From a virus (lineage: Duplodnaviria; Heunggongvirae; Uroviricota; Caudoviricetes), in IMG/VR virus record IMGVR_UViG_2531839584_000015: DNA of 20,588 bases; one strand, 5' to 3'. The position numbers and the translations under genes are program-made. The notes below the pieces were generated by a model. That model worked only from the letters and a program-made list of their open reading frames with translations, was not told the DNA's origin and did not search any database. How positions within the stretch are numbered: position 1 is the first letter of the stretch; every line of letters begins with the position of its first letter. This document shows, piece after piece, positions 852 to 17,797 of the stretch.

Positions 852-909
852 TATAAGTACTCGCTAATATTGAACGATATATATATCAAATTATTATAAA
901 ACTCGTCAG

Positions 910-1647: not shown

Positions 1648-3045
1648 ATGCCGCGCACTGTAACACATAATCCGGATAGCCCCAATAATGACGATGTTTT
1701 AGCCGCATCTGAAAAATGGGACGCCTGTAAACCCCCCTATACCAGCGCACACATGAAAATCTGTGTTGCTGCCGCCAAAATCATCCTCGCTGCTTCCGGC
1801 GTGGCTCGCCGTTCCAAATACGAAAAAGAGAACTATCTCCGTATCGATTTCAGCAAAGCCGGTAAGGTTACATTTTACGCCGAGTTTCCAAAAAAGATGG
1901 GCCTCAAGGGTAAAAAGCTCGGCGAGTGGCCGGAGCTCGCTATCCAGCTGGCGCGCGAAAAAGCGCTAGGTATGGCTGACGGTGGCTTGCGGGCAGAGTC
2001 CGTACATGCAGCGCTGGAAATGTACCGGGATGACCTCAAAGCCAAAGTCGCCCGGCAGAAGCTGAGCCCGGACAGTTTCACAACCTACGGGGTGCGTATC
2101 GACCGGATTAAAGCAACGTTCGGCGAGCGTGAGGTGTTCAGCGACGTAACATACAATCGGCTGGTGGAAGTGCTGGACGAGTGGATCGCCACTCGCTCGA
2201 ACAATAACGCCCTGGAGTTGTTTGCCGAGCTCCGTCGGTTCTGGAAGTTCTGCGCACCTACTCTTTGTAACGGTCGCAATGTTGCTGCCAGTCTGCCAGA
2301 TGATTATGTTTCCTCCCGCGTACAGAAACCCACCCCCACACGGCTTTTTACCGATATTGAGTCAATCGCCCGGCTCTGGCTCAATGTTGCCGCCTGCACC
2401 TCTGTACACCAGAAGAATGCTGTTCGCTTCATGATCATCACCGGCGTTCGTCCGATTAATGTCCATAACCTGCGCTGGGACTACGTTCACGAGGAGACTG
2501 GCGAAATTGTTTATCCTGAAGGGGTTATCGGCATGCGAGGGGCTATGAAAACACAAAAGGCTTTCCCCCTGCCAATAACGCCGGAGATCCGGCGGATTAT
2601 CGACGAGCAGAAAGCATGGCGTGATTCAGTTCCTGAGTGCAACAGGGATTATGTATTTTTGCAGCCGCGTGATCCAATGCAGCCATTTTCAAAACGATCA
2701 CTGGATAAGCTAGTGAAAACATACAGCCCGGATGGGGCTGTAAAAGGAATAAAACATGATGGGACTGTTAAAGGGAAAGACGGTGCATTTAATACGATGT
2801 GCCGTAAATTCCTTAAGAGCAATGTTATTGCCTTGATGAAGGAAAGAGGCTATTCCCGATCAGACCGAAGGGAAATCAGCCTCCTTTGCCTTCACCACTC
2901 CAGCAAGTCAGATGACCCGATGGCAGAACATTACGACTTTTCTGATGAGATTTTGCAGGAAGAGATTGCGTTAAAGCGCGAAGCTTTCGAGGCTCACGAG
3001 CGGAGCATACTTGCGCAGGTGGCATTGCTACGGCGGCGAGGGTAA
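1648..3045 (+). CDS. Tyrosine-type site-specific recombinase (phage integrase)
   Basis: ORF 1642..3045; ATG at 1648 is preceded by TAAGGA (1636..1641). C-terminal region has a catalytic-domain-like layout (R...H-x-x-R...Y: GVRPINVHNLRWDYV, LLCLHHSSKSD, AEHYDF). Confidence 0.8.
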   Translation: MPRTVTHNPDSPNNDDVLAASEKWDACKPPYTSAHMKICVAAAKIILAASGVARRSKYEKENYLRIDFSKAGKVTFYAEFPKKMGLKGKKLGEWPELAIQLAREKALGMADGGLRAESVHAALEMYRDDLKAKVARQKLSPDSFTTYGVRIDRIKATFGEREVFSDVTYNRLVEVLDEWIATRSNNNALELFAELRRFWKFCAPTLCNGRNVAASLPDDYVSSRVQKPTPTRLFTDIESIARLWLNVAACTSVHQKNAVRFMIITGVRPINVHNLRWDYVHEETGEIVYPEGVIGMRGAMKTQKAFPLPITPEIRRIIDEQKAWRDSVPECNRDYVFLQPRDPMQPFSKRSLDKLVKTYSPDGAVKGIKHDGTVKGKDGAFNTMCRKFLKSNVIALMKERGYSRSDRREISLLCLHHSSKSDDPMAEHYDFSDEILQEEIALKREAFEAHERSILAQVALLRRRG

Positions 3046-3242
3046 TACCGGCTGCGACACTTTTGAATAAAAGCGTCGACATTGCGGCGCTCATAACGAA
3101 CTACTTTTGCACTGAAACGAATTGGTGCCAGGATAGCCCGATGACGATGCTTAATATTCCACTCACATAGCGTTTTCTGTGTAATACCTAACTTTTGGCA
3201 TACTTCATCCGGGGTGAGTAAATCGTCGGGTTTCTCGCTCAT
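2994..3242 (-). CDS. AlpA-family HTH protein (excisionase / prophage transcriptional regulator)
   Basis: 82-aa ORF with LLTPDEVCQKLGITQKTLCEW HTH typical of AlpA/Xis-like proteins. Its 3' end overlaps the convergent integrase 3' end by about 52 bp. Confidence 0.65.
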   Translation of the reverse strand: MSEKPDDLLTPDEVCQKLGITQKTLCEWNIKHRHRAILAPIRFSAKVVRYERRNVDAFIQKCRSRYYPRRRSNATCASMLRS

Positions 3243-4636
3243 GCTATACCTCTCTTTTTCATGGCATCGAGCAGGATGTCCTGCACTGTTCGTTTTGAGT
3301 TGCGCCGCTCCATCACCATTTCGTCCATAGTGTCGGCAGCAATAATGTGGTGAATAAATACCGGACGATTGTGTCCGGCCTGTATCTGCCTGGTGGGGCC
3401 GATACGTTCAATAATTTGCTGATATTGCTCCAGGTCCCACCAGTGTGAGAAAAATACCAGTATATTTCCGCCGTCTTGCATGTTCAGGCCGTGGCCCGCG
3501 CTGGCTGGGTGTGCAAAGAGAACAGGAATCTTTCCGGAATTCCAGTCGCGCAGTGTCTGTGGATCCTGGTCGAGGTGACGACCGCGAGGGAATGCTTTAA
3601 GCAAGCGTTCAAGATCGTGTTTCCAGTGATAAGCAACCAGCACAGGTGCGCCAGCTGCTTCGGTCAGTATGCTGTCCAGCGCCTGTAGTTTGGTGTCATG
3701 CAGTTCTGACCAACTTCCGGTGTCGTCTGTGTATACTGCGCCACTGGCGATTTGAAGACACTTCAGTGTCTTTGCCGCGGCGTTCGGTGCTTCGATGCCT
3801 TCGCCATTCAGCTCGAGGAACATTTCCTTTTCCATTTCACGATACTGCTGACGGGCCTTCGGCGGCATATCCACGCGGATTACGTTATGGATGGGGTCTT
3901 TGATATCGAACCAGTCGGCCGCATCTAGCGAGAGGGTCACATCGGCTAATGCTCGCTGTATTTCACCCTGTGAGTGAGCAAAAGGCTCCAGTTTAGTCCA
4001 GCTCTGTCCCGGAAACTGTATCGAGTTGAACCAGCGTGAGGTAAACGCACCGTAAGTGCGCCCGAGACGTTGCCCTTGGTCCACAAACCACGATTGTCCC
4101 CACAAATCTACCAGGCCGTTCGGTGCTGGCGTACCGGTGAGATTTATCCAGCGCCGGACATACTTATGCGCCACTTTGCCCAGTGCCGCCGCGCGCTTAC
4201 CACCACCTCGCAGCCGGAAGGATTTTAGCCGGGTGCTTTCATCTGGAATGACAATACCGAACGGCCATCGTTCTCCCAATTCTTCAACCAGCCAGACAAG
4301 GTTATCGTAGTTGATGGTGAACACGCTTGCGTTGCTGTTCGCCAGCGCCGTAGAGCGCGCTTTGGCATTACCAACAATCGGCTGCACCTCGATATTGCGC
4401 AAATGCCCCCACTTCACTGCTTCATCCGGCCAGGTGTTTGCTGCAACACGTAGCGGCGCGAGGACCAGTGCGGGGCGTGTTTCTGCCCCTGCCATAAAAA
4501 GATCTTCCAGCGCAGTGAGCGTTGCCACGGTTTTACCCATTCCCATACCTGCCCAGATGTTGCAGCGCATAATGTCGATTTGATGATTGATGATGAGATC
4601 TTGGTAGGGGTGAGGTGAAAATATAGCATAGTCCAT
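3239..4636 (-). CDS. SNF2-family (DEAD/DEAH-like) DNA helicase, phage replication
   Basis: Walker A GMGKT, motif II region IVIPDESTRLKS (DE..RLK as in SNF2 proteins), C-terminal helicase domain. RBS GGAGA upstream of ATG at 4636. Confidence 0.75.
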   Translation of the reverse strand: MDYAIFSPHPYQDLIINHQIDIMRCNIWAGMGMGKTVATLTALEDLFMAGAETRPALVLAPLRVAANTWPDEAVKWGHLRNIEVQPIVGNAKARSTALANSNASVFTINYDNLVWLVEELGERWPFGIVIPDESTRLKSFRLRGGGKRAAALGKVAHKYVRRWINLTGTPAPNGLVDLWGQSWFVDQGQRLGRTYGAFTSRWFNSIQFPGQSWTKLEPFAHSQGEIQRALADVTLSLDAADWFDIKDPIHNVIRVDMPPKARQQYREMEKEMFLELNGEGIEAPNAAAKTLKCLQIASGAVYTDDTGSWSELHDTKLQALDSILTEAAGAPVLVAYHWKHDLERLLKAFPRGRHLDQDPQTLRDWNSGKIPVLFAHPASAGHGLNMQDGGNILVFFSHWWDLEQYQQIIERIGPTRQIQAGHNRPVFIHHIIAADTMDEMVMERRNSKRTVQDILLDAMKKRGIA

Positions 4637-4703
4637 GGTATTGTATCTCCATGAATGAACTTATGTAGTAATAGCTTAATTATTTATTTCGAAAGGAACA
4701 GTT

Positions 4704-5582
4704 ATGACCTCAGCTTATACAGATGTCCAGCAAGAAGAAAATATTACTGATAAATTAGTTGTTAAATATGATGGTCCCGCACTAGCAGATCATAAAATAG
4801 ATTTGGATGTTTTAACTGAGTCATTGAATGGACTAAACAACTTGCTTAAAGAAGTTAATTTGGTTGTCAATGGCACTAGTGAGTGTATTAATGTTGAGGT
4901 TGAGCCTTTTAAGGAAGGCTCATTTGAGTATTTGATTGATGTTATTCAAAATCCACTTGACCATTTGAATATATTAAGCATTATTGGGCTTGGAGGTACA
5001 ACTGCACTCGCAGCAGGAAATACTCTCATTGACTTAATTCGTCAGATCAATGGTAGGCAAATAAAACGGTTGACTTTAACAGCGGAAGGAGACTGTAAAA
5101 TAGTTATGGATGATGGTGAGGAAATTATAGCCCCGTCATATTTCCGGCCTTTACTTGCCTCACCAAGCATACGCAAATCCTTATCGAAGTTAATTCATAA
5201 TCCTTTGCAAAAGGAAGGATACGAATCGCTTAAAATTTCAACTCAACAGGGGGTTGAGCTGATTAAGGTGCACGAAGATAATATTGAACCGTTCAGATAT
5301 AGGCGCGTTCCTGTAGTGCAGTCCTTGTCTGAAAGGGTGATTGAAGAGGCTCTAATCACATTTTTGACTATTCATAAGGATAAAAACACAGGCTGGCGAG
5401 TCAACTATGGCGATGACACAATCAGCGTGTCTATAGAAGATACTGAGTTCTTACAACGTGTTAGTACGGGAAGAGAACCTGGTGTTTTTAGTGATGCTTA
5501 CTGCGTTGATTTGCTCGTCCGTGAGAACTTGAATTCGCTGGACAAAACGTACATAGTTGTTAAAGTACACGGCATCTTATAG
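4704..5582 (+). CDS. Hypothetical soluble protein, 292 aa; first gene of AT-rich three-gene cassette
   Basis: Intact ORF with AAAGGAA RBS 7 nt upstream of ATG. A hand count of a 60-nt sample gave about 32% G+C, against about 58% in the neighbouring helicase gene. Opposite strand to the surrounding replication operon. No family recognised. Confidence 0.6.
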   Translation: MTSAYTDVQQEENITDKLVVKYDGPALADHKIDLDVLTESLNGLNNLLKEVNLVVNGTSECINVEVEPFKEGSFEYLIDVIQNPLDHLNILSIIGLGGTTALAAGNTLIDLIRQINGRQIKRLTLTAEGDCKIVMDDGEEIIAPSYFRPLLASPSIRKSLSKLIHNPLQKEGYESLKISTQQGVELIKVHEDNIEPFRYRRVPVVQSLSERVIEEALITFLTIHKDKNTGWRVNYGDDTISVSIEDTEFLQRVSTGREPGVFSDAYCVDLLVRENLNSLDKTYIVVKVHGIL

Positions 5583-5605
5583 TAGATTCACATGGGGAGG
5601 GGGCT

Positions 5606-5854
5606 ATGATTGCTTTTGCTTTTTGGCTGGCTTTTTTTAGCCTGCTTCCCGTACTATATTGGGTTCTTAAGATGGGGTTTGACCGGTTACGCTTTGCGCT
5701 TATGCCTAAACATCATCTTGTTCTTGAATGTGTTGACTCAGAAGGAGTTGTCCGTCGCGATGTCGTTGATGTCTCTTCTGATGATGAATTTTACAAAATT
5801 GCAATGAATGCCATTCGTGCTGGAAGATCAGTCAAAGGAGGGACGTTTGAGTAG
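5606..5854 (+). CDS. Small membrane protein, 82 aa (one N-terminal transmembrane helix plus acidic C-terminal domain)
   Basis: ORF preceded by GGGGAGGGGG RBS-like sequence. N-terminus AFAFWLAFFSLLPVLYWVL is strongly hydrophobic. Sits 24 bp downstream of the 292-aa gene. Confidence 0.5.
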   Translation: MIAFAFWLAFFSLLPVLYWVLKMGFDRLRFALMPKHHLVLECVDSEGVVRRDVVDVSSDDEFYKIAMNAIRAGRSVKGGTFE

Positions 5855-6377
5855 CGCTTCTAAACTTGATAGCTACGAAAAAGTCCCTCTGATTTCTAAT
5901 GTTGCTGCTGGTGGCATCACTGGTTTTTTAACATTACTGGTGTCCTCGTGGGACGGTTGTTTTCCGTATATTGGTTCTGATTTAAATACAATAAAGCCAT
6001 TTCTTTTATTAATGCTTCCCAGTTGCGCTATGTTTCTGGCGCATTGGATAAAGTCGATTGGGTTTAAATGGTCCTTAGGTAGCGTTAATCGACAGTTATT
6101 AAGCATTAATAAGAAGAAAGAAAAAGAACTTCGCCGTGATATTGAAAAGTACAAAAATGTTATTTCTAATGAAAAGATAGAGGACTTTAAAAGTCAACTT
6201 GAACAAGTATTACAAGATCGTCATGATATTATTTCTAATAATTACGCACAGAAACTAAGAGAAAGAAATTATACGCAAGAAAAATATCATGAGCATAAAC
6301 AAACCGCTGCAAATGATAATATTGAGCTGCAAAGCATACTGGAGAATCAGAAGTTCAATCAAAAAGGCATTGACTAA
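5808..6377 (+). CDS. Membrane protein with C-terminal coiled-coil, 176-189 aa; start uncertain (ATG 5808, or in-frame TTG 5847 preceded by AAGGAGG at 5835..5841)
   Basis: ORF overlaps the end of the 82-aa gene in another frame. Two hydrophobic segments (GGITGFLTLLVSS, PFLLLMLPSCAMFLAHWI), then a K/E-rich heptad region. Stop is only 4 bp from the stop of the convergent VRR-NUC gene. Confidence 0.5.
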   Translation: MPFVLEDQSKEGRLSSASKLDSYEKVPLISNVAAGGITGFLTLLVSSWDGCFPYIGSDLNTIKPFLLLMLPSCAMFLAHWIKSIGFKWSLGSVNRQLLSINKKKEKELRRDIEKYKNVISNEKIEDFKSQLEQVLQDRHDIISNNYAQKLRERNYTQEKYHEHKQTAANDNIELQSILENQKFNQKGID

Positions 6378-6381
6378 ATTT

Positions 6382-6651
6382 TTATAATATCCTCTCTAGG
6401 TTCTTGCTATCCAGCACCACTACGGTAAAGCCCAGTTTTCGCAGACGTTCATGTTCGCGCAATTGGTCAGGCCGTGGTGGCTTGCCGGGAGATTTACATT
6501 CAACGAAAACGATACGACCACCTGGTAGCAGGACAATGCGATCCGGTACCGAGCGGTGACCGGGAGATACAAACTTAAAGGCCACTCCGCCAGCTTTTTT
6601 CACTTCAGCGACGAGGTGCTTTTCGATAAGGCTTTCACGTTCATAGGCCAT
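6382..6651 (-). CDS. VRR-NUC domain nuclease
   Basis: Sequence MAYERESLIEKHLVAEVKKAGG...VECKSPGKPPRPDQ resembles the VRR-NUC (PD-(D/E)XK-like) family seen in phage replication modules. Start taken as ATG at 6651, 5 nt after the upstream gene's stop; the track ORF extends to 6678. Confidence 0.6.
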   Translation of the reverse strand: MAYERESLIEKHLVAEVKKAGGVAFKFVSPGHRSVPDRIVLLPGGRIVFVECKSPGKPPRPDQLREHERLRKLGFTVVVLDSKNLERIL

Positions 6652-6940
6652 CTGAATCCCACTCTTCAAAAAGCACATTCAATTCCAGTTTCTCTGCCAA
6701 CGCGTTTTCTGCACGTGCGCCAGCAGAGTACTCCCACTCTTTGAGCATATAAATCGTATCGGCACAGCGAAGCATTGCGAGGCAGATGTCCATATACTGA
6801 GCCTGTGTCAAACCATTGGGTAAAGTTGCGGGGTTAAGCACAACATATCCCTTGTCCGTTAGCCTCTTTGCTGCGGAATGAAAAGCCGGGCGGTTAAATT
6901 GCTCGTAACCGCTCATCGGCCCGGCAACGTAAACGATCAT
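6641..6940 (-). CDS. DUF4406-like protein (nucleoside 2-deoxyribosyltransferase-like fold)
   Basis: N-terminus MIVYVAGPMSG is characteristic of DUF4406 phage proteins as I recall them. ATGA start/stop overlap with the upstream 71-aa gene. Confidence 0.5.
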   Translation of the reverse strand: MIVYVAGPMSGYEQFNRPAFHSAAKRLTDKGYVVLNPATLPNGLTQAQYMDICLAMLRCADTIYMLKEWEYSAGARAENALAEKLELNVLFEEWDSDGL

Positions 6941-7152
6941 TCTTCGACCGCCTTACGCTTTTCACGCATATTCTGCATCAGGCAAAAATCAGATCTGCGT
7001 TCACTCCATTCCTGATTCAGTTCGTGATGTGATTCGCGGTTGGCTTTTGCCCAGACCTTCGCTGCCCGGTCATATTCGCCGGATTGTTCAAGTCGCAAAG
7101 CCTCCCTTGCAGCCCTGTAATAAAGTGGATTGTCCCGGTATTTAAATGACAT
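6937..7152 (-). CDS. Small phage protein, 71 aa, function unknown
   Basis: ORF packed between the polymerase and DUF4406 genes with a start/stop overlap. No confident family assignment. Confidence 0.45.
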   Translation of the reverse strand: MSFKYRDNPLYYRAAREALRLEQSGEYDRAAKVWAKANRESHHELNQEWSERRSDFCLMQNMREKRKAVEE

Positions 7153-7157
7153 AGGAG

Positions 7158-9221
7158 TTAATCCTTACGGTAGTGGTACGCCTCAAAACCGCCAGCGTTC
7201 AGTGGGATATCTGGCGCCCATTCGGGGTTAGTGGAGAGAAGCGCGGAAAGCGCTTTATCGTTGAAATCTTCTGTGTCAGGTGATTCGGTGATCACCTCGT
7301 CGTGTACCGTCAGCACAATGCTGTAACCGGCATCTTCGATAAGCGGCATGTTTCCGGCCAGAACGTCGCGGGCGGCCGCCTGGGTGACGTTCTCCACCAG
7401 CTTTCCGCCGTAGGTTTTGAGTCGTTGCCATTTACGCGAATAAGAGTTAACACCCATGTAGGTGATATTCCCTTGTTCGATAACCGGAGACGGGTAGCAT
7501 ACAGCGCGTCCGGATGGTAGCTGTATGCGCAGCCACGCGCCATCGCGGCGGATTTTAAGATAACCGCAATACAATGTTTTTTGCGGTGTGGCGATTGCTG
7601 TGCGGACGGTGCACTCCAGTTCGTACCAGAAATCACAGGTCGCGGGATGCGCCCGGCGCCAGAGACGTTTAAGTGAGTCGCAGGCGATAAATACCCGTTC
7701 AGAAAGCCCGTAGGTCGATTTACGTTTAACCGATTCGTCGTACCAGCTTTTCGCCTCGCGGATAACATCGCGGGGAATGTTTGGCAGTGCGGCGTTCGCC
7801 AGCCCGTCGAGATCGAGACCGTAAACCAGAGCAAAAGTGATGAAAGCCGATACACCTCCTCCATAACCCAGACCGAGTTCCATGACTTTACCGATCTGAC
7901 GCATGTGTTTATCAACATCATCTGGTGCAATATCGAAAGCTTTTGCATACGCCAGTTTATATAAGTCCGGACCCGTTCCGGCGTCGTACTCTCTGAATGC
8001 ATTCAGTTTCCATTCTTCTCCCGCCAGCCATGCCAGCATACGGCCTTCAATGTTCGACAAGTCACTTACCACCAGCTTTTTGCCTGTTGGCGCGATAATG
8101 CAGCCACGTAACGCTGAACTGGTTAGTTCCATGATATTGTCAAACAGCAGGTCTGCACATCCGGCTTTCAGTGCTTCGATGCCTTCGTCTATTTGTTCCT
8201 GTTTTAGTGAAGGGCGGGGAAGGTTCTGGGGCTGGAATAGCCGTCCGGCCCAACGACCGGTACGTGACGCCCCGCAGAACTGTAGCGTACCGCGTAAGCG
8301 CCCGTCGTGGCTTACGCCTTTCATCAGTGCCTTGTATTTACTGGTGCTGGTAGTACTGGCCTGCAGGCGGATAGCCAGCAGTTCTTTCACGGCAGATGGT
8401 AAATCGGGGTCGGCAATACGACGTTCCAGAGTACTGCGTTGCATGTCTGGTAGCTCCACACCGTAGGATTCAACAATGTGCTTAATCAACGCGTCTCGTT
8501 GTGTGGCTGCCTGCACTTCGCCATCAGTCATTTCCTGTGTACGCTTTGCCAGGCGCTTTTGTTCCTGGTCTACCGCGTCGATCGCAGCGCGTGCGAGTTC
8601 CACGTCCATGCAGACGCCCCGGTCATTGATCTGCTGATCACGATGCCAGAGCGCCAGTTCTGTCCCCTGATAATTCCACTTCGGCAGACGTTTATAGACT
8701 TCGCGCATTGCCTCGATATCCAGTCCGGCGTAAGCAACAAAGCGCCGCCATTCTTCCGGGTGGGTTTTGCTGGTGGCCCGGCGCAGTTTGCTGTTTTTCG
8801 GGCGTGGCTTACAGAACAGCTGGATCAGCGCTTTACCTTCTTTGTCCTTCGCTTTGTCTTGCGGGACGCCTAGTACTTCGCAGAGTTCCCCCAGAGACCC
8901 CGGGAGACCGTGCGCCAGCGCCTGCACCATCGTGTCGCGCCAACGTTCGACTGGCGGTGCCAGTCGCGGCATTGCATAACGCAGGACGGTGCGGTCGAAG
9001 TGAGAGTTATGAAAATAAAGCAGGGTTTCAGGGGCTGCGATTGCTTCGTATAAGCCGTGTGGAATACCACCACCGGCAGTGATATCCCATACGTTTACTG
9101 GCCCGTCGTTGATAGCCCATGCGAACAGCATCACTTCAACGCCTTCGGCATACGCATGGGTACCGTTCGTAATAGGGATTTCGCAATAGGTTTCCAGGTC
9201 GCCCCATAGTATATTGGACAT
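7158..9221 (-). CDS. Family A DNA polymerase with N-terminal 3'-5' exonuclease domain
   Basis: Exo I-like DLET near the N-terminus. Motif A DLSNIEGR, motif [13 protein letters not shown], motif C LTVHDE. Length 687 aa. Confidence 0.85.
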
Positions 9222-9267
9222 GTGTTTACCTTGGTTTTTATTCTATTAACTGATTAAAAGATTAATT

Positions 9268-9897
9268 ATGCATATGATCCAATACTTGATTGACCATACA
9301 GAGCATCTGGAGAAAATAGCTGGATATATTTTTTCATGTTTGATTGTTATGGGAGTCTGGATAAGAAAGATCATTTTTAATTATAAGTATAAAGAGCCTA
9401 AATATGTCAAGAAGTTAATTTTATATTTAGTTAAGTATGAACGTTATCTGGATAAGGAGGATAAGAGTGCCATAGAAAAAAGAATAAATGATAAAATTAT
9501 TCGTGATGCGCTGAAATTGCAATCTTCTTATAACCGAAGTGATGTTATTTACATTTGCAATAGATTAGAAAAAAGACAGTATATAAATCAGGTGATTAAG
9601 CTTCAGAATTATATAGAGAAAGATAACGGAGTGTTTTTCATCAATGTTAATTTTTCAGGTTTTTTATTTATTATTAGTCGTCTGTTTTCCTTTCTGTGTT
9701 TTGTGCTGTTTATCCTTTTTTCTATTATCTGCATTATTTCCATAGGGCAAAATGAAGGCCTTTTAAATTATCTTGTGTATATGGTTATGACAATAGTTTT
9801 AGAGACTGTTGGTTTTTGGATGTATGATACTTTCCCGTCTAAGAAGAAGATCTGTGAACTAAATAAAGAATTGAGGAAGATTAAGATTCCTGAGTGA
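9268..9897 (+). CDS. Hypothetical multi-pass membrane protein, 209 aa; AT-rich single-gene insertion
   Basis: Strongly hydrophobic segments (IFSCLIVMGVWI; FSGFLFIISRLFSFLCFVLFILFSIICIISIG; LVYMVMTIVLETVGFW). Lys/Ile/Tyr-rich, AT-rich codons. Opposite strand to the flanking replication genes. Confidence 0.55.
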   Translation: MHMIQYLIDHTEHLEKIAGYIFSCLIVMGVWIRKIIFNYKYKEPKYVKKLILYLVKYERYLDKEDKSAIEKRINDKIIRDALKLQSSYNRSDVIYICNRLEKRQYINQVIKLQNYIEKDNGVFFINVNFSGFLFIISRLFSFLCFVLFILFSIICIISIGQNEGLLNYLVYMVMTIVLETVGFWMYDTFPSKKKICELNKELRKIKIPE

Positions 9898-9915
9898 TTA
9901 TGCGCCTAATCAGCA

Positions 9916-9934
9916 GCCCGGTATTTAACCGGGC
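9916..9934. terminator. Hairpin between convergent genes (possible bidirectional terminator)
   Basis: GCCCGGT-ATTTA-ACCGGGC, a 7-bp stem with 5-nt loop in the 52-bp gap between 9268..9897 (+) and 9950..10498 (-). Flanking U-tracts are weak. Confidence 0.3.
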
Positions 9935-9949
9935 GTCTATGAAGTAGGG

Positions 9950-10498
9950 TTAAATCAGTGCTTCAGCATCAGCACCTTCGCTGATATCGTCGAAATCGTC
10001 AGCGCTTGCCACTCCGCCGACAGCGAATGCATCGCCGTCTCGCAGGAACTGGACTCCGCCGAGTGAGGCATTAATGCGTTTACCGAAATTATTGTCCTGT
10101 GCCCAGATATCGATAACGGCGTTTACATAGCACCCTGCATAGGGACGTCCATCAGCCTGAATAAGTGGCGAACGATCGCGATCAAGAACAGCTGGGCGCG
10201 CTTTGTTAGCAGCATTCAGGAAGAAATTGCCGGGGAAGCCTTCATACTCTGCTTTTTCATCACCATCATGCAGGCACAGATTGAGTTTTTTCTCCAGTTG
10301 GTTATAAATGGGCTCCCACTTCTCTCCCCATTTTTCCTTCGCTACCTGCTTCATAGCTTTACGGATTTCTTCCAGTTGTGGGTGTTTGGGTGACATTAAA
10401 AATACTGCGGAGAAACGTGGATCGCCTTCGCCGTTTACAGTTTTAGCTTCAAACAGAGACGGGAAGGCCAGACGAACATTGTTCAGCTTCAGTTTCAT
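9950..10498 (-). CDS. DUF2815-family phage protein (SSB-like)
   Basis: N-terminus MKLKLNNVRLAFPSLFE matches the conserved start of DUF2815 proteins, which usually sit next to DUF2800 in phage replication modules. Acidic C-terminal tail. Confidence 0.65.
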   Translation of the reverse strand: MKLKLNNVRLAFPSLFEAKTVNGEGDPRFSAVFLMSPKHPQLEEIRKAMKQVAKEKWGEKWEPIYNQLEKKLNLCLHDGDEKAEYEGFPGNFFLNAANKARPAVLDRDRSPLIQADGRPYAGCYVNAVIDIWAQDNNFGKRINASLGGVQFLRDGDAFAVGGVASADDFDDISEGADAEALI

Positions 10499-10513
10499 GG
10501 GTATTTCCTTAAA

Positions 10514-11815
10514 TCAGATGAGGTCTGCGGTTAGCGTATCGTCGGATACGTCGTCGAAATCATTTACAGGGTTGATATTGAGTGCGGGGCGTGGGTCTGA
10601 CTCGGGAACGATGGTGGGTTTACCATCAGCTCGTGTTATCAGTGCCTCGACTTTTGACCAACGGCGCGGACTGGCCTTTTTGATAAGTTTTTCGGCTTTT
10701 GTGGGGCTAATAAGTTTAAAGTCGAATACTTCTTCAGTTTTGTACCTGAACTGGTCCTTCAGAAGTGCGCGAGCTGCCTCTTCATCACTCCAGGCCCGGT
10801 TACCTTGTTTTCCTGTTACCAGTTTAAACCCCGGTACCGGATGTCCGGCATTGAGTTCATTGTGAACCCGGTCCCGTACTGCCTTTAGCCAGGACTCAAT
10901 AAAGTCGGCCTGGCTATAGATCTCCGCAAGCTGCTCAATGGTTAACAGAGGTACACGTGCGCTGGCATTGGTGATTATTTCGCTGACAGGCTTTGTCAGA
11001 TCTTCAAAGTCGCTGGCCGCTGTTTGTAAATGCTGCATTTTCTGGGCAGTGCAAATAGCTTTTGCTTTACAGAAGCGGCACTGTTTTTCTCCAGGTATGA
11101 AGTTTTCCAGCGGTAGTGTCTCAATGCCTTCGCATTCAGCAATATTGAGAACAAGGATCGCACTGGTTGCGGCCTCCTGTGCTCGTTTACCGAAAGACTG
11201 AAGTTCCTGCACGGTTAACGACCATTCTGAAACGTGGTTGAGCCTTGGCTGGTGAATAAATAATCTTACAGTCTCAAAGTCATACAGCATGCTGAATTGT
11301 TCGAGCGCACCCAGAGCATACAGTTGTAGTTGCTCATTTTGTTCTGCATCAATGCGGACGCCTTTGCCATATTTCAGGTCGTGGATTTGTAATTCGTTAC
11401 CAGCGATGATTATGCCGTCGGCAGTTCCGAAAGATTCTTCCACCCCCGTTATATGTGAGAAATCAACACGTTGTTCAACCAATAGTTCATTATTCTGTGC
11501 AAGAGTCCAGACCGTATCAACATACCGGCCAACGGCTTCGACCATTTCATCATCCACCTGTGGGCCAGATGTATCATCAGGATTTTCGCGAAGGGGGTAT
11601 GAGCCGAGAAACATAGAAACATTGCATCCGGCGTAGTGTTCCGGGTGGCTTTGCCTGTTTCGTAGAACTTTTTCAGCAAGCGCGTGCGCTGCAGTGCCCT
11701 CGATTGCAAAAGTTGTTTCTTTATCCGGTTGTGTGGCCTCCAGCGCCAGACTTCCTGGGCAGCGCATCCATCGATGCGCTGATGATGGAGAAAGTTGTGC
11801 ATGAACGTCTGGCAT
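10514..11815 (-). CDS. DUF2800-family PD-(D/E)XK nuclease (Cas4-like exonuclease)
   Basis: N-terminal [15 protein letters not shown] motif and a C-terminal cysteine cluster ([12 protein letters not shown]) are typical of DUF2800/Cas4-like nucleases. Confidence 0.65.
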
Positions 11816-11817
11816 GA

Positions 11818-12720
11818 TTAACCCTCCAGTGCTTTTTCAGCCAGGGTGATTACTTCAGCGAGATTTTCATCCGTTACTTCACCAAGTTTCCTGGCTCCCT
11901 GTTTTTCCAGAATTGCAATAGCTTCTGCCCGGTAACCCCCTTTTGCTAACTGGAGGATCAACCCTTCAGCTTGTTTGCGTAGTGCCGCGAAATCAATTGT
12001 ATGGTCATCTTTGGCGTCATTATTCTGGCTGGAATTTGCTGCGTCTCTGCGTGCAAATTCTTCCTGCAGCTGAAGGTACTCAACACGGTTGATCTCGATA
12101 TGGCCTTTTTTAAGCATCTCGTTCAACTTGCGTAAGGTGTGGAGTTCACTGGCTGCTGTGCCGGATACATTTTTGACGTAAAACGGCCCCGTGCGTTCTC
12201 CATCTTTGTTACTGGCCTTTTTCGGCTTAACTTCATCACGCCCATCTGCAGGTGCATCAAGTAGTTGCTCGGCAAAAGCACGTCGCTCGCCGATGGTTGG
12301 CAGGTCGTCCCAGAACTTAAGAATGTTACGGGACAGGTCCAGAAGAGCGGGTTTATGCAGTGCCCTGGCTCGTTTGACGCCCTGCAATGCGCTGTCGAGA
12401 GCATCAATCTGAACTACTCGTTTATCGCCTTCAGCATCACGGTAGGCAACAGCACGTTGCAGCATGTCTTCTGTGATAGGGGTGGCTACCGGGTAGAAAC
12501 CAGCCAGTGCGATAACGTCGCTGAACTCCAGATCATCCAGTGTCATTGCCGCTGACATATTTTCAGTTTCAGTTGCTGTATCCCGACATTCCTGCACTCG
12601 TGAAATCGTGTCAGGATGCATAACAATACCTGATGCCATCGTGCGGATAAGACGTTCAAGCAGCGCATTATGTTGTGCCAGAAGTTGATTATTAAGTTCG
12701 AGACTGGTTTCTAAACTCAT
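11818..12720 (-). CDS. Hypothetical phage protein, 300 aa, acidic
   Basis: ORF in track, tightly packed in the operon: 2-bp gap to DUF2800 and ATGA overlap with the upstream small ORF. No family recognised. Confidence 0.5.
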
Positions 12721-12866
12721 ACTGTGGTCCTCGCTACAAGGAGAATGAAAGTGATGATCAGACCGAGCGCAGTGGCAACGGCCAGACCGGTCATCAAATC
12801 GAAGTTTTTACGGCGATAACGGAGAACATCGCGCCCCGTCAGTCGATAGAAGTGTTCAGGTTTCAT
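12717..12866 (-). CDS. Small hydrophobic protein, 49 aa (not in ORF track)
   Basis: Hand translation of the minus strand gives [54 protein letters not shown] lies upstream of the ATG at 12866, and the stop overlaps the ATG of the 300-aa gene (ATGA). Confidence 0.4.
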   Translation of the reverse strand: MKPEHFYRLTGRDVLRYRRKNFDLMTGLAVATALGLIITFILLVARTTV

Positions 12867-12924
12867 CGGTTGTATTCCTTTTTTCATATCGGGGAGCGCG
12901 CTGTTGCGAGTGCGCTTTCAGACA

Positions 12925-12951
12925 TAAAAAAGCCCGTCACTTGCGGCGGGC
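12925..12951 (-). terminator. Putative intrinsic terminator inside the leftward early operon
   Basis: On the minus strand, GCCCG-(10 nt)-CGGGC hairpin followed by TTTTTT, between the zinc-finger gene and the downstream replication genes. Confidence 0.4.
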
Positions 12952-12982
12952 AAAGACTACACACAGCAATTACATGGATGAT

Positions 12983-13177
12983 TCAGTTGGTATTGTGCGT
13001 ACGTGGTACCACAAGGTTGAAGCGGACACGCCAGTGCGTTGCAATGGTATGCAGGAAAGCACCACATCCAGGGCAGTGCTCATAACATTCGTTGATTTGG
13101 TATCGTTTTGGCTTTGGTGTCTGAAGCTGTGTTTGGCAAGCAGGGCATTCACCTTTGAGCGGTTTATACGTTTTCAC
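12983..13177 (-). CDS. Small Cys4 zinc-finger protein, 64 aa; first gene of the leftward early operon
   Basis: CPAC...(17 aa)...CPGC arrangement. GTG start at 13177 with AGGAAA RBS upstream. Confidence 0.5.
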   Translation of the reverse strand: MKTYKPLKGECPACQTQLQTPKPKRYQINECYEHCPGCGAFLHTIATHWRVRFNLVVPRTHNTN

Positions 13178-13460
13178 GCCGTTTCCTCATTCAGTTCACT
13201 TTGGTGGTTCGGCGGCTTCGACTTGTATCAGTAGACAGTGCTTCGCCGCACCCCAAAGGGAACTTACTGACCCGTATTGCCGACATCCTGTCCCGCCACG
13301 GTCCCGACGCATGGTTTAGAGTCGCGCCGTTCGACTTGTGGCTAAAGATACAATTTGAGTTGTATTGTGTAAACCACAAATGTGGTATTTTGTGGGGTGT
13401 GAATACTACTTTATTGATATTTAAGTGAATTTAATTTGTAAGACTTTACAAATGGGGTAA

Positions 13461-13480
13461 GGGAGGCTGTTACGCCTCCC
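13461..13480 (-). terminator. GC-rich hairpin just downstream of the repressor gene
   Basis: GGGAGGC-(6 nt)-GCCTCCC, a 7-bp stem, lying 20-40 nt past the cI-like stop on the minus strand. U-tract is imperfect. Confidence 0.3.
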
Positions 13481-13499
13481 GATATTTACGGTGGGAATA

Positions 13500-14123
13500 C
13501 TAACGTTTACGGCGGTAAATACGGTGTTCGATCATTACACCTATGATCTGTAAGTTCATATCTGCACTACGAAAAATAGGGTAATCAGGATTTAGGGGGA
13601 TTAATTCAAAGTCGTCGATGCCGATTCCTAATGGACGGTATTTTTTAAATGTAGCTTCGTGACCGTCGTTTTTGGCGACAACAAACTCCCCTGGTGCAGG
13701 ACATAGATCAGGATCGATGATAACAATGTCTCCTTCTTTAAACTCTGGTTGCATGCTGTCGCCATCAATACGTAATGCGAAGCATGTTTCTGGAATGTCA
13801 GAGTCTGCCAAAATATATTCAAATTCCCCTGTCAGATCTGTTATGTCTCTTGCTTCTGTAAGCTCTCCTGCCTGAACGTAACTTAATATAGGTATGCGTC
13901 TGGTACTTATCTCCGCGAGAGGCATAATATTTTTACCGTTCAGTAGCCAGTCTGGGCTACATTTCAAGGCCTTAGCCAGATCCAGAAGATTGCGCGGCTT
14001 TCTGGTTCGTCCACTTTCGATGGATTCTATGGATTGTTGGCTAACCCCTGCAGAATTCGCTACTTCCACTTGAGTCATTCCTAATTCCAAACGACGTGCT
14101 TTAAAACGGGCTGCGAGAGACAT
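13500..14123 (-). CDS. cI-like phage repressor (XRE-type HTH + LexA-like S24 peptidase domain)
   Basis: HTH LGMTQVEVANSAGVSQQSIESIE; Ala-Gly cleavage site (VQAGEL); Ser/Lys dyad context (GDSMQPEF, VVAKNDG). Start taken at ATG 14123 (MSLAARF...) with AAGGA RBS; the track ORF extends 17 codons further upstream. Confidence 0.8.
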   Translation of the reverse strand: MSLAARFKARRLELGMTQVEVANSAGVSQQSIESIESGRTRKPRNLLDLAKALKCSPDWLLNGKNIMPLAEISTRRIPILSYVQAGELTEARDITDLTGEFEYILADSDIPETCFALRIDGDSMQPEFKEGDIVIIDPDLCPAPGEFVVAKNDGHEATFKKYRPLGIGIDDFELIPLNPDYPIFRSADMNLQIIGVMIEHRIYRRKR

Positions 14124-14243
14124 GGGATTAGTCCTTCTGGGTTGTATTAATGTGTATACCCACATTAAAAACAATTTTTGTTGTATTTGACAAACCTCGT
14201 TTGTTGTTGCTAAATACCACTAAAATTGTATGAGGTGAAAGCA
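14124..14243. promoter_or_regulatory. Divergent cI/cro promoter-operator region
   Basis: Perfect inverted repeat TTAATGTG-N6-CACATTAA at 14147..14168. TTGACA at 14187..14192, followed 18 bp later by TAAATA, faces the cro-like gene. Confidence 0.5.
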
Positions 14244-14456
14244 ATGACCTTAGCGACCCGAGTAAAAGAACGACGTAAAGAACTCAAAATGACGCAAGTT
14301 ACGTTGGCTGAGCTCACAGGAGTGAGCCAGCAGGCAATAAACAGAATTGAAAGTGGTGTTATTGCTCGGCCACGTTATCTTCTTGAAATGTCTATAGCAT
14401 TGGATTGCGACCCTAATTGGCTGTTGTATGGCTCACAAAACGATAAAAAGGCTTAA
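14244..14456 (+). CDS. Cro-like XRE-family HTH regulator
   Basis: LKMTQVTLAELTGVSQQAINRIESG HTH. ATG at 14244 has GAGGTGA 5 nt upstream. Divergent from the cI-like gene; stop lies 3 bp before the primase start. Confidence 0.75.
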   Translation: MTLATRVKERRKELKMTQVTLAELTGVSQQAINRIESGVIARPRYLLEMSIALDCDPNWLLYGSQNDKKA

Positions 14457-14459
14457 CCC

Positions 14460-16646
14460 ATGTCCGATAGCAAACCATGGGGAGCTACGCCTGATGAGTG
14501 GTTTCATTTCGACCTGGTATTGGGGAGAACTGAGCATCTTCTCCCAGTTGTATGTAACCCCGGTGCGACCATATCCCCTGATAGTAAACTGAAAGCGCTG
14601 GGCAAGACGCCAAGTCGCTATAACCGGGACCGCCAGGTCACCGGTATTGCTCAATGGACCGGGTATGTTGTTACTGAGCATGATTTTGCCCGCTGGTCGA
14701 ATGAACCGGATTATGGCATCTGCGTGCGTACAGGCCATGGCTGGCTGGCGCTGGACTGCGATAGCGAAGATGAAGACATTCAGGCAGATATTCGCAAAAC
14801 GCTTGTGCAACTTCTGGGGGAGTTGCCGCCGCGACGCTGGCGAGCAAACAGTAATAAGTGTCTGTATCTGCTGGCCGTTGATGGTGATTTCCGTAAGCGT
14901 ATCCATCGCCTGGCGGGGGATATGGGCATTATCGAGTTGCTGGCGAACGGGCAGCAGTTCGTTGCCTGTGGTACGCACAGCAGCGGCGCGCGTATTGAAT
15001 GGGACGGTGGTTTGCCGGATGAACCTCCGGCTATTACTGGTGAGCAGCTTGAAACGCTGTGGCAGCGCCTGGCTGAACAACTCCCTGTGTCGGTAACCAC
15101 CGAAGCGGGCAACACGAAGATGCGCGACCGATCAGCATTCACGCCCGGCGCGACGGATGATACAGCTGAATATCTTGATGCCAATGGCTGGACGCTGCTG
15201 GATGGCGCAAATGGTGAACGATATATCCGCTGTCCGTTTGAAGACGGCCACAGTAGCGGGGGCGATCCAACAAGCACAGCTTATTTTCCTGCGGGAACCG
15301 CGGGCTTTGAGCAGGGGCATTTTAAATGCCTGCATGCCAGTTGTGCGCATCGTGATGACGGAGATTTCCTTAATGCCATCGGGATCCGCAACGACGATTT
15401 CGAAGATCTGACCAGCACCGAAGTGGCGGAACCTTTACCGCTGCCTGCTTTCGAGCGTGATAAATGGGGGCGTATCGAGGCAACCATCAGCAACGCAGCC
15501 AAAGCAGTAGTACGCCCTGATTTTGTGGACATCGATATTCGCTTTGACCAGTTCCGCGACGAAATCATGTTTGCCCCTGCAGGATCCGGACAATGGCGAG
15601 CATTCACCGATGCGGATTATGCGCGCCTGCGCATCACGATGGAAAAGCGGGGATTTAAACCTGTTGGTCGTGAACTTATTCGCGATGTGGTGTTACTTGC
15701 AGCCGATGAACAACCATTCGATTCAGCGATCACCTGGCTGAACGGGCTGGAGTGGGATGGCGTGCCGCGCATCGAATGTTTCTACCATACGCACTTCGGT
15801 ACAGCCAACACGCCTTATACCCGTGCGGTGTCTATGTACATGTGGACCGCGTTGGCGGGGCGAGTACTGGAGCCAGGCATCAAAGCGGATATGGTGCCGA
15901 TCCTCGTTGGTCCGCAGGGCTGCGGTAAGTCTTCCGGAGTGGAGGCACTGAGCCCTGATCCTGCGTTTTTTACTGAAATCTCTTTTGCCGAAAAAGACGA
16001 TGATCTCGCTCGAAAAATGCGTGGTCGGCTGGTGGCAGAGATTGGTGAACTGCGCGGACTTAATACCAAAGAGCTGGAGTCAATCAAAGCGTTTGTGACA
16101 CGTACTCACGAAAACTGGATCCCGAAATACCGGGAGTTCGCCACCCAGTTTCCTCGTCGCCTGGTGTTCGTTGGTACCACCAATGAGGACGAATTCCTTG
16201 CGGACAAGACTGGTAACCGTCGCTGGCTCCCCGTGGAAGTGTCGAAAGTCGACGTGAAAGCGATAAAAAGAGATCTCCTTTTACTTTGGGCTGAGGCTCG
16301 TGAGGTGTTTCAGCGTCTGGGGGGTATCCAGTTCCGTGAGGCTGAACAACTGGCAGCGAGTGTCCATGAACAGTACACCATCAAGGATGCTTGGCTTGAA
16401 ACGGTAGAGAAATGGCTCGACACGCCAGACCTGATGACTAATGAACTTCCGCGAAATTGCGAATTTTTACGCGCAAGTGATGTTTTGCGTGATGCGATTG
16501 GGCTAAATCCTGACCGCATCGGAAAACGCGAAGAAATGCGAATTAGTAATGTTTTGCAAAATTGCGGGTATAAGCGTGCCCAAAGGCGAATTGGGGGGAA
16601 AAAATGCAAGGTTTGGGAACCGCTGGAACCACGCGGAACCACCTAG
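14460..16646 (+). CDS. Replication initiator: primase-polymerase (Prim-Pol) N-terminal domain + zinc-binding region + VirE/P4-type P-loop NTPase
   Basis: 728 aa. Walker A GPQGCGKSS in the C-terminal half. Cys/His cluster CPFEDGHSSGG...HFKCLHASCAH. N-terminal acidic catalytic-like segment LALDCDSEDED. Operonic with cro. Confidence 0.7.
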   Translation: MSDSKPWGATPDEWFHFDLVLGRTEHLLPVVCNPGATISPDSKLKALGKTPSRYNRDRQVTGIAQWTGYVVTEHDFARWSNEPDYGICVRTGHGWLALDCDSEDEDIQADIRKTLVQLLGELPPRRWRANSNKCLYLLAVDGDFRKRIHRLAGDMGIIELLANGQQFVACGTHSSGARIEWDGGLPDEPPAITGEQLETLWQRLAEQLPVSVTTEAGNTKMRDRSAFTPGATDDTAEYLDANGWTLLDGANGERYIRCPFEDGHSSGGDPTSTAYFPAGTAGFEQGHFKCLHASCAHRDDGDFLNAIGIRNDDFEDLTSTEVAEPLPLPAFERDKWGRIEATISNAAKAVVRPDFVDIDIRFDQFRDEIMFAPAGSGQWRAFTDADYARLRITMEKRGFKPVGRELIRDVVLLAADEQPFDSAITWLNGLEWDGVPRIECFYHTHFGTANTPYTRAVSMYMWTALAGRVLEPGIKADMVPILVGPQGCGKSSGVEALSPDPAFFTEISFAEKDDDLARKMRGRLVAEIGELRGLNTKELESIKAFVTRTHENWIPKYREFATQFPRRLVFVGTTNEDEFLADKTGNRRWLPVEVSKVDVKAIKRDLLLLWAEAREVFQRLGGIQFREAEQLAASVHEQYTIKDAWLETVEKWLDTPDLMTNELPRNCEFLRASDVLRDAIGLNPDRIGKREEMRISNVLQNCGYKRAQRRIGGKKCKVWEPLEPRGTT

Positions 16647-16805
16647 AAGAGAAGGTGGTTCCACCTTGCAGACCTTGTGGCAAGCGGGGCGGAACTACTG
16701 GAACCACTGGAACCGCCTTTCTACTAGAAACCCCATATATATATATAAGTCGATTGAGGGAAAGGTTAGGAAAAGGTGGTTCCAGGTGGGGGCAGGTGGT
16801 TCCAC
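16616..16805. repeat. Putative origin of replication: iteron arrays flanking an AT-rich (AT)7 tract
   Basis: GGAACC(A/G)C-type repeats at 16616, 16625, 16635, 16691 (GGAACT), 16700 and 16709, spaced about 9-10 bp. Inverted copies GGTGGTTCC at 16654, 16775 and 16795. AT-rich CCCCATATATATATATAAG at 16731..16749. Overlaps the 3' end of the primase gene. Confidence 0.6.
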
Positions 16806-16806
16806 T

Positions 16807-16849
16807 CCGCATTAGCAACTTTTTGCATGTTGATACATGCAATATGCGG
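16807..16849. promoter_or_regulatory. Nested palindrome upstream of the Q-like gene (candidate operator)
   Basis: TTGCATGT-TGAT-ACATGCAA (16823..16842) nested inside CCGCAT...ATGCGG (16807..16849). Confidence 0.35.
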
Positions 16850-16934
16850 ATCGGAACTGCGTTATCCACACCCACGGATATACAGACGTAGTTCTCAGAA
16901 AATTTTTTCGTAGCAAAACGTAGAGGTCAGAGCT

Positions 16935-17357
16935 ATGCGTAATATTCAACAGGTTTTAGAGCGCTGGGGTGGCTGGGCAGCGAGTGAAGGTGGTAGCGTC
17001 TACTTTCCTCCTGTTGCAGCCGGGTTTAAGAATCTGCTACCCGCGACGCAGTCTGGAAGGCTGAAATGCAGTGACAATGACGGTCTTATCATCAACTCCG
17101 CTATGAGCTGCTTGAAGAAAAAAGATCCGTATCTGTGCACGCTCCTTGAGTGGCATTACGTCCAGGCCATGCCCGTGAGGGCGATGGGTGAGAAGCTCGG
17201 CGTATCTCACACCCACGTTCTGAAGAGGCTTCAGGCGGCAGAGGGATTTATTGACGGTTGCTTAGCCATGCTGGATGTGGTGCTCGAAATGGATCAGTCG
17301 GTTCAGTCAAAGCCTCAGGCTATCAGGACTTTGCGTAGGAGCTGCTCGGCGGCATAA
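16935..17357 (+). CDS. Phage antitermination protein Q (QuuD-like, Phage_antitermQ family)
   Basis: N-terminus MRNIQQVLERWGGWAA...AAGFK and C-terminal KRLQAAEGFIDGCLAMLDVVLEMD closely resemble E. coli prophage QuuD-type Q proteins as I recall them. Confidence 0.8.
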   Translation: MRNIQQVLERWGGWAASEGGSVYFPPVAAGFKNLLPATQSGRLKCSDNDGLIINSAMSCLKKKDPYLCTLLEWHYVQAMPVRAMGEKLGVSHTHVLKRLQAAEGFIDGCLAMLDVVLEMDQSVQSKPQAIRTLRRSCSAA

Positions 17358-17388
17358 TATCCAGCAATCAATCACGTAAGGGAACCAG

Positions 17389-17730: not shown

Positions 17731-17797
17731 AAAATAGTTGTGGAATTCCAAAAAGCCGATTAGCCTGATATCTGTTGAAAACAGTTCATCACGAAGA

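Follow-up and report, generated by a model that had tools for sequence, protein, structure and literature searches.

The stretch of viral DNA analysed here, referred to below as the window (20,588 nucleotides; IMG/VR record IMGVR_UViG_2531839584_000015, Caudoviricetes), contains a single AT-rich gene at 9268..9897 (+) that lies antisense between a family A DNA polymerase gene (polA) and a DUF2815 gene within a replication operon. We conclude that it is a well-delimited cargo gene of a small uncharacterised family, and that it is a prophage moron, the product of which is a predicted inner-membrane protein and probably excludes phages.

The open reading frame (ORF) at 9268..9897 starts with ATG, and its 209-aa product, a predicted inner-membrane protein of the family PHROG 10579, is identical to RefSeq WP_000551021.1. 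To its left is polA (7158..9221, minus strand), recognised by its match to Pfam DNA_pol_A and its RefSeq annotation, and to its right, convergent with it, is the gene for a DUF2815/Enc34-type (Gp2.5-like) single-stranded DNA (ssDNA)-binding protein (9950..10498, minus strand; PF10991, 1.3e-42, and annotations in BPP-1 and APSE-2); a DUF2800 gene (10514..11815, minus strand; Pfam match) lies upstream of DUF2815 in the operon. There is no other ORF of 50 aa or more in 9222..9949, the longest on the minus strand there being 44 aa. Because the DNA is AT-rich, stop codons are expected at 8.5% of codons at the local composition, and a run of 209 open codons has a chance probability of about 9e-9; when this 728-nt stretch was shuffled 2000 times, the longest run without a stop was 63 codons on average and 133 at most, compared with 215 in the real sequence. 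The cargo gene has a GC content of 0.295 (0.333 at third codon positions), against 0.543 for polA, 0.488 for both DUF2815 and DUF2800, and 0.474 across the window outside the gene, and the GC profile falls to 0.28 at 9400-9800. An earlier note on this DNA had described an AT-rich 209-aa ORF antisense between polA and DUF2815, and both the ORF, given the shuffle test and the Pfam-matched flanks, and its composition, about 20 points under that of the flanks, are confirmed here.

Comparison with related phages shows that the gene is an insertion. The survey took in the 80 IMG/VR contigs with the DUF2815 most similar to that of the window, and 77 of them have both flanks; the contigs were not dereplicated and the proportions are therefore indicative only. 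The slot is empty in 12 of the 77 loci, with 74–80 bp and no ORF between DUF2815 and polA, while 20 loci have a member of PHROG 10579 antisense in the slot (nine of the 209-aa type, ten of a 199-aa type, and one of a 223-aa type). The remaining loci hold other genes, with more than ten cargo types in the slot overall, including Nmad5 with or without a 229-aa ORF, SIR2, BRO-N, a 206–222-aa same-strand protein and a 67-aa ORF. The homology between sister Escherichia coli prophages has sharp limits, which are precisely the polA start codon to the left and the DUF2815 stop codon or an adjacent hairpin to the right; the slot between them contains the 209-aa gene, a gene of like orientation for the 199-aa protein, an 89-aa or 229-aa opposite-strand ORF with Nmad5, BRO-N, or a 500-aa SIR2 gene. 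The distant phages BPP-1, YeP5, APSE-2 and Xfas53 have one or two unrelated small genes at the DUF2815-polA junction. Among 5,426 complete E. coli genomes, the membrane gene with its flanks is present in 67, and 92 more have one or both flanks without the gene.

The empty state of the slot and the many cargoes it can carry indicate that the membrane gene is an insertion in a long-standing cargo hotspot and not a conserved replication gene. The earlier note had proposed a moron, or inserted accessory gene, and this stands in view of the empty slots, the sharp homology breaks, the variety of cargoes and the low GC content; the direct adjacency of DUF2815 and polA in relatives, for which the note had suggested looking, is what the 12 empty loci exhibit, and many relatives lack the gene, as would not be the case for a replication-associated protein present in all related phages. 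As far as sequence comparison can define it, the gene is a self-contained single-gene cassette in a recombination-prone slot of a BPP-1/APSE-type module in a temperate E. coli phage. We found no description of the DUF2815-polA junction as a hotspot in the literature searched.

The left edge of the cassette is a 46-bp AT-rich spacer (9222..9267; GC 0.22), whose minus strand includes the ribosome-binding site of polA (AAGG, located 8 nt ahead of its ATG at 9221) and whose plus strand must carry the start signals of the cargo gene; there is a weak promoter-like match at 9215-9244 (TGGACA-18-TATTCT). On the right is a GC-rich hairpin at 9916..9934 (GCCCGGT-ATTTA-ACCGGGC; 7-bp stem, 5-nt loop), 16 nt from the DUF2815 stop codon, whose 58-nt context folds at -20 kcal/mol (z = -2.2, with 8 of 200 shuffles folding equally well). 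The hairpin has no T-run on either strand and was not called by the terminator scan, which found no canonical terminator for the cargo gene. The earlier note had noticed this hairpin following the inserted gene; the hairpin is there, but it is not part of the cassette, because an equivalent GC-rich hairpin directly follows the DUF2815 stop codon in empty-slot relatives and in slots with other cargoes. We therefore reject it as the cargo gene's own terminator and regard it as an ancestral element of the replication operon, belonging to the DUF2815-polA intergenic region. When the DUF2815 flank is compared with E. coli genomes, some of the matches have 9916 as their first position, and judged from these alignments the hairpin is the right-hand boundary of the cassette and was not brought in by the cargo; it may additionally stop or stabilise the cargo transcript. 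In seven empty-slot loci the 74–80 bp between DUF2815 and polA include a terminator-like hairpin, CACCCGGC-CATG-GCCGGGTG followed by TTTT, directly after the DUF2815 stop codon, and a second conserved stem-loop ahead of the polA ribosome-binding site; these stem-loops could act as an attenuator or a processing site for polA expression within the operon.

Further cargoes of the slot were seen in individual loci. A SIR2-family gene of 493–500 aa occupies it in five loci (for example at 2942-4444 of L021), and four others have a 275–278-aa lipoprotein on the operon strand with an LSGC lipobox and, as judged by eye, similarity to SPFH/band-7 proteins. One locus (L080) has an opposite-strand gene for a 227-aa protein with an N-terminal CxxC pair and, also by eye, a DUF4145-like C-terminus. 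Seven loci carry a second opposite-strand family of 166–174 aa (GC 0.30–0.38), the highly divergent copies of which have an N-terminal hydrophobic region and appear to be membrane-anchored; two more loci have apparently broken copies, and by hidden Markov model (HMM) this family is unrelated to PHROG 10579. A TIR-domain gene is present in the next slot, directly downstream of polA, in several prophages (1684-2445 in L005 and 3105-3866 in L006, for example), a position that in the window is occupied by ANR-family and DUF4406 genes. The replication module thus has at least three cargo slots.

The membrane protein matches PHROG 10579, a group of unknown function, with E = 2e-109 (residues 28–209 against positions 1–182 of the 182-position profile), and eight of the nine divergent relatives that were scanned match it too (5e-90 to 0.005). 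A word-indexed search of 5.8 billion proteins returned near-identical E. coli sequences only. The 199-aa protein of the same slot is a distant homologue, collinear and 23% identical, and a profile built from the 209-aa and 199-aa types, when run exhaustively against 1.84 billion representatives, identified 33 clusters, nearly all of 190–260 aa, which keep the full-length architecture and motifs down to 16% identity. By these searches this is a small enterobacterial family; among phages, only three, all of E. coli, carry a homologue, and none was found in the plasmids searched. Five mutually divergent subfamilies, including that of the window, occupy the DUF2815-polA slot, always antisense to the operon. 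These same-slot alleles are only 17–25% identical to the window protein, and the flanks are 60–65% identical in the most distant phage and up to 99% identical in others, a pattern that shows exchange of divergent alleles at a fixed site.

Homologues elsewhere were likewise found as single inserts. One, 38% identical, is at 6001-6630 in two P2-like prophage loci (L010 and L011), where it is the only insert between gpS (tail completion) and gpV (spike), which we take to be the site of the AT-rich nonessential orf30 in P2. Others are a single gene beside TraG_N in a region resembling an integrative and conjugative element (ICE), a gene beside a 1273-aa SIR2_2 protein and aGPT-Pplase/thymidylate-synthase genes, one at the edge of a prophage remnant, and one alone between SLT and thrS in a chromosomal islet. 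All of the nine homologues in other contexts have a GC content of 28–36%, compared with 41–57% in their flanks. Because it is a single AT-rich gene in every context examined, we conclude that the protein works alone and travels as cargo.

These contexts bear on a replication-linked role, in which the protein would tether or regulate the replisome at the membrane, or the antisense unit would throttle polA in the lysogen. The occurrence of five divergent subfamilies in the same slot and orientation, amounting to 20 of the 77 IMG/VR loci, could be read in this way, and since polA is downstream of the cargo in the minus-strand operon, its transcript must run antisense through the cargo gene. We nonetheless consider such a role distinctly improbable: the gene is dispensable for replication, because many close relatives have an empty slot or unrelated cargo, homologues reside away from replication genes, in the tail-gene cluster of a P2-like prophage, in an ICE-like region and in a chromosomal islet, and the fidelity to the slot is explained simply by recombination through conserved flanks.

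In its genomic behaviour the gene resembles the classical morons and prophage defence hotspots (HK97 gp15; P2 old/tin/fun; PMC9122126; PMC3594210), in that it is inserted between genes adjacent in relatives, has a low and deviant GC content, is a single-gene unit exchanged among phages, and has neighbouring or alternative cargoes with the defence domains SIR2 and TIR. It differs from them in that its slot is inside a replication operon, and in that its promoter and terminator are putative, the hairpin being ancestral.

The earlier note had also described a multi-pass membrane protein, and prediction bears this out with three transmembrane (TM) segments. Hydropathy identifies hydrophobic segments at approximately 17–32, 129–159 and 165–186, and an AlphaFold2 model based on a 33-sequence alignment (pLDDT 81, pTM 0.56) has long helices at 11–40, 128–160 and 165–188; a first model from a shallow 12-sequence alignment had a pLDDT of 49 and was unusable. 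Both methods agree on TM1 (~17–32), TM2 (129–159) and TM3 (165–186). TM1 is predicted to be followed by a basic, helical cytoplasmic domain of about 95 aa with a small beta-hairpin (33–128), TM2 and TM3 to be joined by a five-residue periplasmic loop, and TM3 to lead to an amphipathic cytoplasmic tail with a short C-terminal helix (192–202). Across all 33 family members the number of lysines and arginines per residue is 0.20 in the long domain, 0.18 in the tail and 0.06 in the loop, a positive-inside pattern by which the N-terminus and the loop are assigned to the periplasm, and the domain and the tail are taken to be cytoplasmic. The predicted topology is thus a short periplasmic N-terminus, TM1, the cytoplasmic domain, a TM2-TM3 hairpin and the cytoplasmic tail.

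Conservation in the family peaks in the cytoplasmic parts (residues 55–100 and the tail) and is lowest in the TM segments and the loop. Four motifs are recognisable, Y-x-x-Y-L-x-x-E-D-K, R-x-x-I-Y-I-x-N-R, F-F-I and P-x-x-K-x-I-x-x-x-N-x-x-L-x-K-I-D, and the tail has the conserved motif F-x-x-F-P-x-x-K-x-I-x-x-L-N-K-E-L; only P190 and N199 are near-invariant across the family, and the alignment has no conserved stretch of 7–10 columns. Neither the window protein nor the family profile matches Pfam (E <=0.01) or PDB sequences.

The closest parallel among characterised proteins is SieA of phage P22, an inner-membrane protein of 162 aa for which three TM segments are predicted and whose gene lies between late genes on the other strand; SieA is both required for blocking DNA injection by P22-like phages and enough to do so by itself (PMC10883804). 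Its types A, B and C are about 25% identical and share one genomic slot, its TM segments are variable, as they are in the family of the window protein, and its best-conserved motif, FxRYPxEAxxFNK, is on the cytoplasmic side after the last TM segment (PMC10883804). The window protein shares with SieA, by prediction, a small size, an N-terminal TM segment, a cytoplasmic stretch and a TM hairpin, and its cytoplasmic motif with P and N-K right after the last TM segment resembles that of SieA; moreover, both are single prophage genes opposite to the surrounding operon, both have divergent types in one slot, and both are absent from many close relatives. They differ in that the cytoplasmic domain is about 95 aa in the window protein and about 50 aa in SieA, and in that sieA is between the ejection-protein gene 16 and the tailspike gene of P22-like podoviruses, while the window gene is in a replication module. 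Exclusion by SieA has been demonstrated, whereas for the window protein we infer it.

The family was compared with SieA of P22 and with the type B protein of E. coli HS, the phage collection having yielded type A only. An hhalign comparison pairs residues 179–203 of the window protein with 131–156 of SieA over 23 columns ('...YPGEANGFNKEF' against '...FPSKKKICELNKEL') with a score of 19.2, an E-value of 0.023 and an hhalign probability of 2%; none of 60 column shuffles reaches 19.2 (maximum 16.2), and the reversed comparison scores 13.9. Since support is confined to this short motif, we liken the protein to SieA but do not file it as a member; against homology stand the negative HMM scores given below, the 2% probability and the 23-column length of the match.

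A second line of evidence comes from DefensePredictor (Science 2026, PMC13092281), a machine-learning screen in which Table S10, comprising 1,041 clusters, lists WP_000551021.1 as a 'predicted novel defense gene' with mean log-odds of 6.1 (cut-off 4) and without a homologue in known systems; for the 199-aa allele type (cluster WP_096845875.1) the mean log-odds are 5.9. Both, as well as WP_000199789.1 (the product of another window gene described below), are absent from the cloned and tested units of Tables S6-S8, and 45% of the candidates that were tested were validated (PMC13092281). DefensePredictor provides a machine-learning score and no family definition, topology, slot analysis or mechanism.

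Taken together, the presence of SIR2 in the slot and TIR next door, the SieA-like layout and genomic behaviour, and the DefensePredictor call all strengthen the case for exclusion or defence, along the lines of the superinfection-exclusion or abortive-infection function that the earlier note had suggested, and an anti-phage role of some kind, with all modes of defence considered together, is favoured by a slight balance of the evidence. The gene is moreover kept in decayed prophages: enterotoxigenic E. coli (ETEC) H10407 has an intact membrane gene identical to that of the window and a polA annotated as frameshifted, and the window has lost its late genes to IS26. Among specific mechanisms we rank first a SieA-like block of DNA delivery at the inner membrane, as a tentative choice. 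The cargo gene would be transcribed from the repressed prophage, convergent with a silent replication operon, and its product would insert in the inner membrane and act, as P22 SieA does, on the apparatus with which incoming phages deliver their DNA, disturbing it when it contacts the cytoplasmic membrane. The divergent alleles of the slot would then be specificity variants swapped by recombination through the conserved flanks, and during lytic growth polA transcription running antisense through the cargo gene would switch it off.

Several observations weigh against this interpretation. No homology to characterised exclusion or defence proteins was found with Pfam, PADLOC, PDB, or HMM and hhalign comparisons with SieA; the window protein has no match in PADLOC-DB v2 at E-values up to 1, and fold searches of PDB and the viral structure database BFVD with the model gave no significant match. 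Scored with the family HMM, SieA of P22 has -3.0 bits and the HS protein (HS1) -2.3 bits, SieA matches PHROG 7745 only and the family PHROG 10579 only, with no cross-match, and the spacing from P to N in the tail motif is 9 in the window protein but 7 in SieA. The DefensePredictor call is not independent, because GC content and gene orientation are among its features (PMC13092281). A promoter scan found three sites where 4.3 are expected in shuffles, and so provides no evidence by itself. Constraint on the gene seems modest, since the ratio of nonsynonymous to synonymous substitution (dN/dS) among close alleles is 0.37–0.77, albeit with few substitutions, and there is one nonsense allele; in the prophage of O55:H7 DEC5B a nonsense codon is present at residue 63 and polA is intact. 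Finally, almost all conserved residues are cytoplasmic and only about 20 residues are exposed to the periplasm, a distribution that suits a block of DNA entry no better than it does a cytoplasmic sensor-effector of abortive infection.

In such an abortive-infection role the cytoplasmic domain would sense a phage product, and the TM hairpins would oligomerise and depolarise or permeabilise the membrane such that the cell dies before progeny are made, as a one-protein version of RexAB or of the two-transmembrane (2TM)/SLATT effectors of the cyclic-oligonucleotide-based antiphage signalling system (CBASS) and of defence-associated reverse transcriptases (DRT). Beyond the cytoplasmic location of the conserved surface and the variability of the TM segments, it is consistent with the alternation of the slot cargo with SIR2 and the nearby TIR, both of them classical abortive-infection effectors. 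The predicted TM hairpin with cytoplasmic helices, the small size and the anti-phage contexts are likewise reminiscent of 2TM/SLATT effectors (CBASS, DRT and AbiA-type) and of lambda RexB. There are also scattered sub-threshold matches: among the 33 family members, DUF4231 matches two (best E 0.024) and SLATT_fungal one (E 0.019), both weak and isolated; PADLOC gives weak partial matches in two of the 33 relatives (PDC-S47, E 0.00042, and a CBASS 2TM effector, E 0.0015) and an RTasSLATT match in a single member (E 0.085); and a SLATT protein is at rank 6 in the BFVD structure search. These matches are, however, single-member ones of 16–18 bits under the curated cut-offs, the two strongest cover TM1 and the first cytoplasmic helices and not the TM hairpin, and the window protein itself has no Pfam or PADLOC match; SLATT/2TM membership is rejected, the matches lying mostly outside the TM hairpin. 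Nor is there a sensor or signal-generating gene beside the window gene, on which known 2TM effectors usually depend, or a fold match to pore-formers above noise. We therefore regard abortive infection as the second candidate, and as unlikely without being negligible.

The lack of homology to defence proteins could reflect a role outside defence, in lysogenic conversion or host physiology, such as the modulation of a host membrane transporter, the envelope stress response, a colonisation trait or conjugation, the gene being carried because hotspots accept any beneficial gene. Such slots also carry BRO-N and Nmad5, one homologue is beside conjugation genes, and more than half of the DefensePredictor candidates failed validation. 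Arms-race genes, however, are where one would more typically expect alleles to diverge so extremely at one site between near-identical flanks, and the gene associates with phages and their hotspots, not with pathogenicity islands, with the family confined, one exception apart, to mobile-element contexts. We judge this explanation unlikely and place it after abortive infection.

The relaxed dN/dS, the nonsense allele and the absence of promoter evidence would also suit a decaying or selfish passenger that confers no benefit, for example an addiction element or what is left of a toxin-like membrane peptide. Against this, the architecture and motifs are kept across 33 subfamilies to 16% identity, the family alignment yields a confident AlphaFold2 model, and the gene is intact in all nine IMG/VR loci of the 209-aa allele type. 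Six copies outside the window were examined, from five E. coli genomes and one phage, and five of these are intact, the sixth having a nonsense codon. We view a passenger as the least probable of the explanations.

A bolder form of the defence interpretation, which we consider a long shot, is that PHROG 10579 constitutes a new one-protein class of membrane immunity that is not descended from SieA and is co-adapted to the DUF2815-polA junction. The cytoplasmic domain would sense replication products of incoming phages (Gp2.5-like ssDNA-binding proteins, PolA complexes or ssDNA), the TM hairpin would collapse the membrane potential, and antisense read-through in the prophage's own lytic cycle would silence the gene, avoiding self-targeting.

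The window as a whole derives from a prophage. E. coli ETEC-2264 has a complete prophage, integrated next to yfhL, whose left part matches positions 1386..17974 at 99.99% identity. It encodes an integrase, an SNF2-like helicase, polA, DUF2815, DUF2800, a LexA-like repressor, a VapE primase/helicase and a Q-like antiterminator, with myovirus-type late genes after them. The window has an IS26 copy (17975..18794, 820 bp, with GGCACTGTTGCAAA inverted repeats) that replaces approximately 23 kb of lysis and late genes relative to ETEC-2264, and is followed by the right end of the prophage; positions 1..1415 are an exact repeat of 19174..20588. The exact repetition of the ends and the replacement of the late genes indicate that the window represents a deleted derivative, the circular form of which has 19,173 bp and is wrapped in the record. 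The right end of the prophage is joined to the left as in the excised attP form, the corresponding junction in ETEC-2264 being inside yfhL.

Two other regions of the window are also AT-rich. A second opposite-strand cargo cluster is present at 4704-6377 (+) between the SNF2-like helicase gene and a VRR-NUC gene; its first gene (4704-5582, +) encodes a 292-aa protein (WP_000199789.1) that matches the PADLOC candidate PDC-S42 (6e-40) and, weakly, DUF7946, and that is listed in DefensePredictor Table S10 with log-odds of 6.25, and small ORFs follow at 5606-5854 and 5808-6377. This cluster is presumably the first moron implied by the earlier note, which called the membrane gene a second one. A literature search found no publication on PDC-S42 or on phages carrying the membrane gene. 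At the right end, ORFs at 204-851 and 910-1344 on the minus strand (repeated at 19377-20024 and 20083-20517) have GC contents of 0.33 and 0.41, and in the intact prophage their neighbour is pinE; the product of 215 aa has a hydrophobic segment in its N-terminal part and, after it, a long coiled-coil-like region, with no PADLOC match. An Rfam search of the window gave no match.

Prophage morons encoding membrane proteins were already known, and this protein itself had been flagged by a machine-learning screen. If it does exclude phages, it would add a new, sequence-unrelated family to the few understood inner-membrane exclusion proteins (SieA, Imm and HK97 gp15), and the same-slot alleles, at 17–25% identity within flanks that are up to 99% identical, would be a natural set of specificity variants convenient for mapping target range. 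The hotspot lies within a widespread replication module (found in BPP-1, APSE, Xfas53, YeP5 and many enterobacterial prophages) and could be mined as the P2 and P4 hotspots were. Prophage genes of this kind can alter the susceptibility of their hosts to phages, and are thus relevant to phage therapy against E. coli and to the typing of ETEC and Shiga toxin-producing E. coli (STEC).

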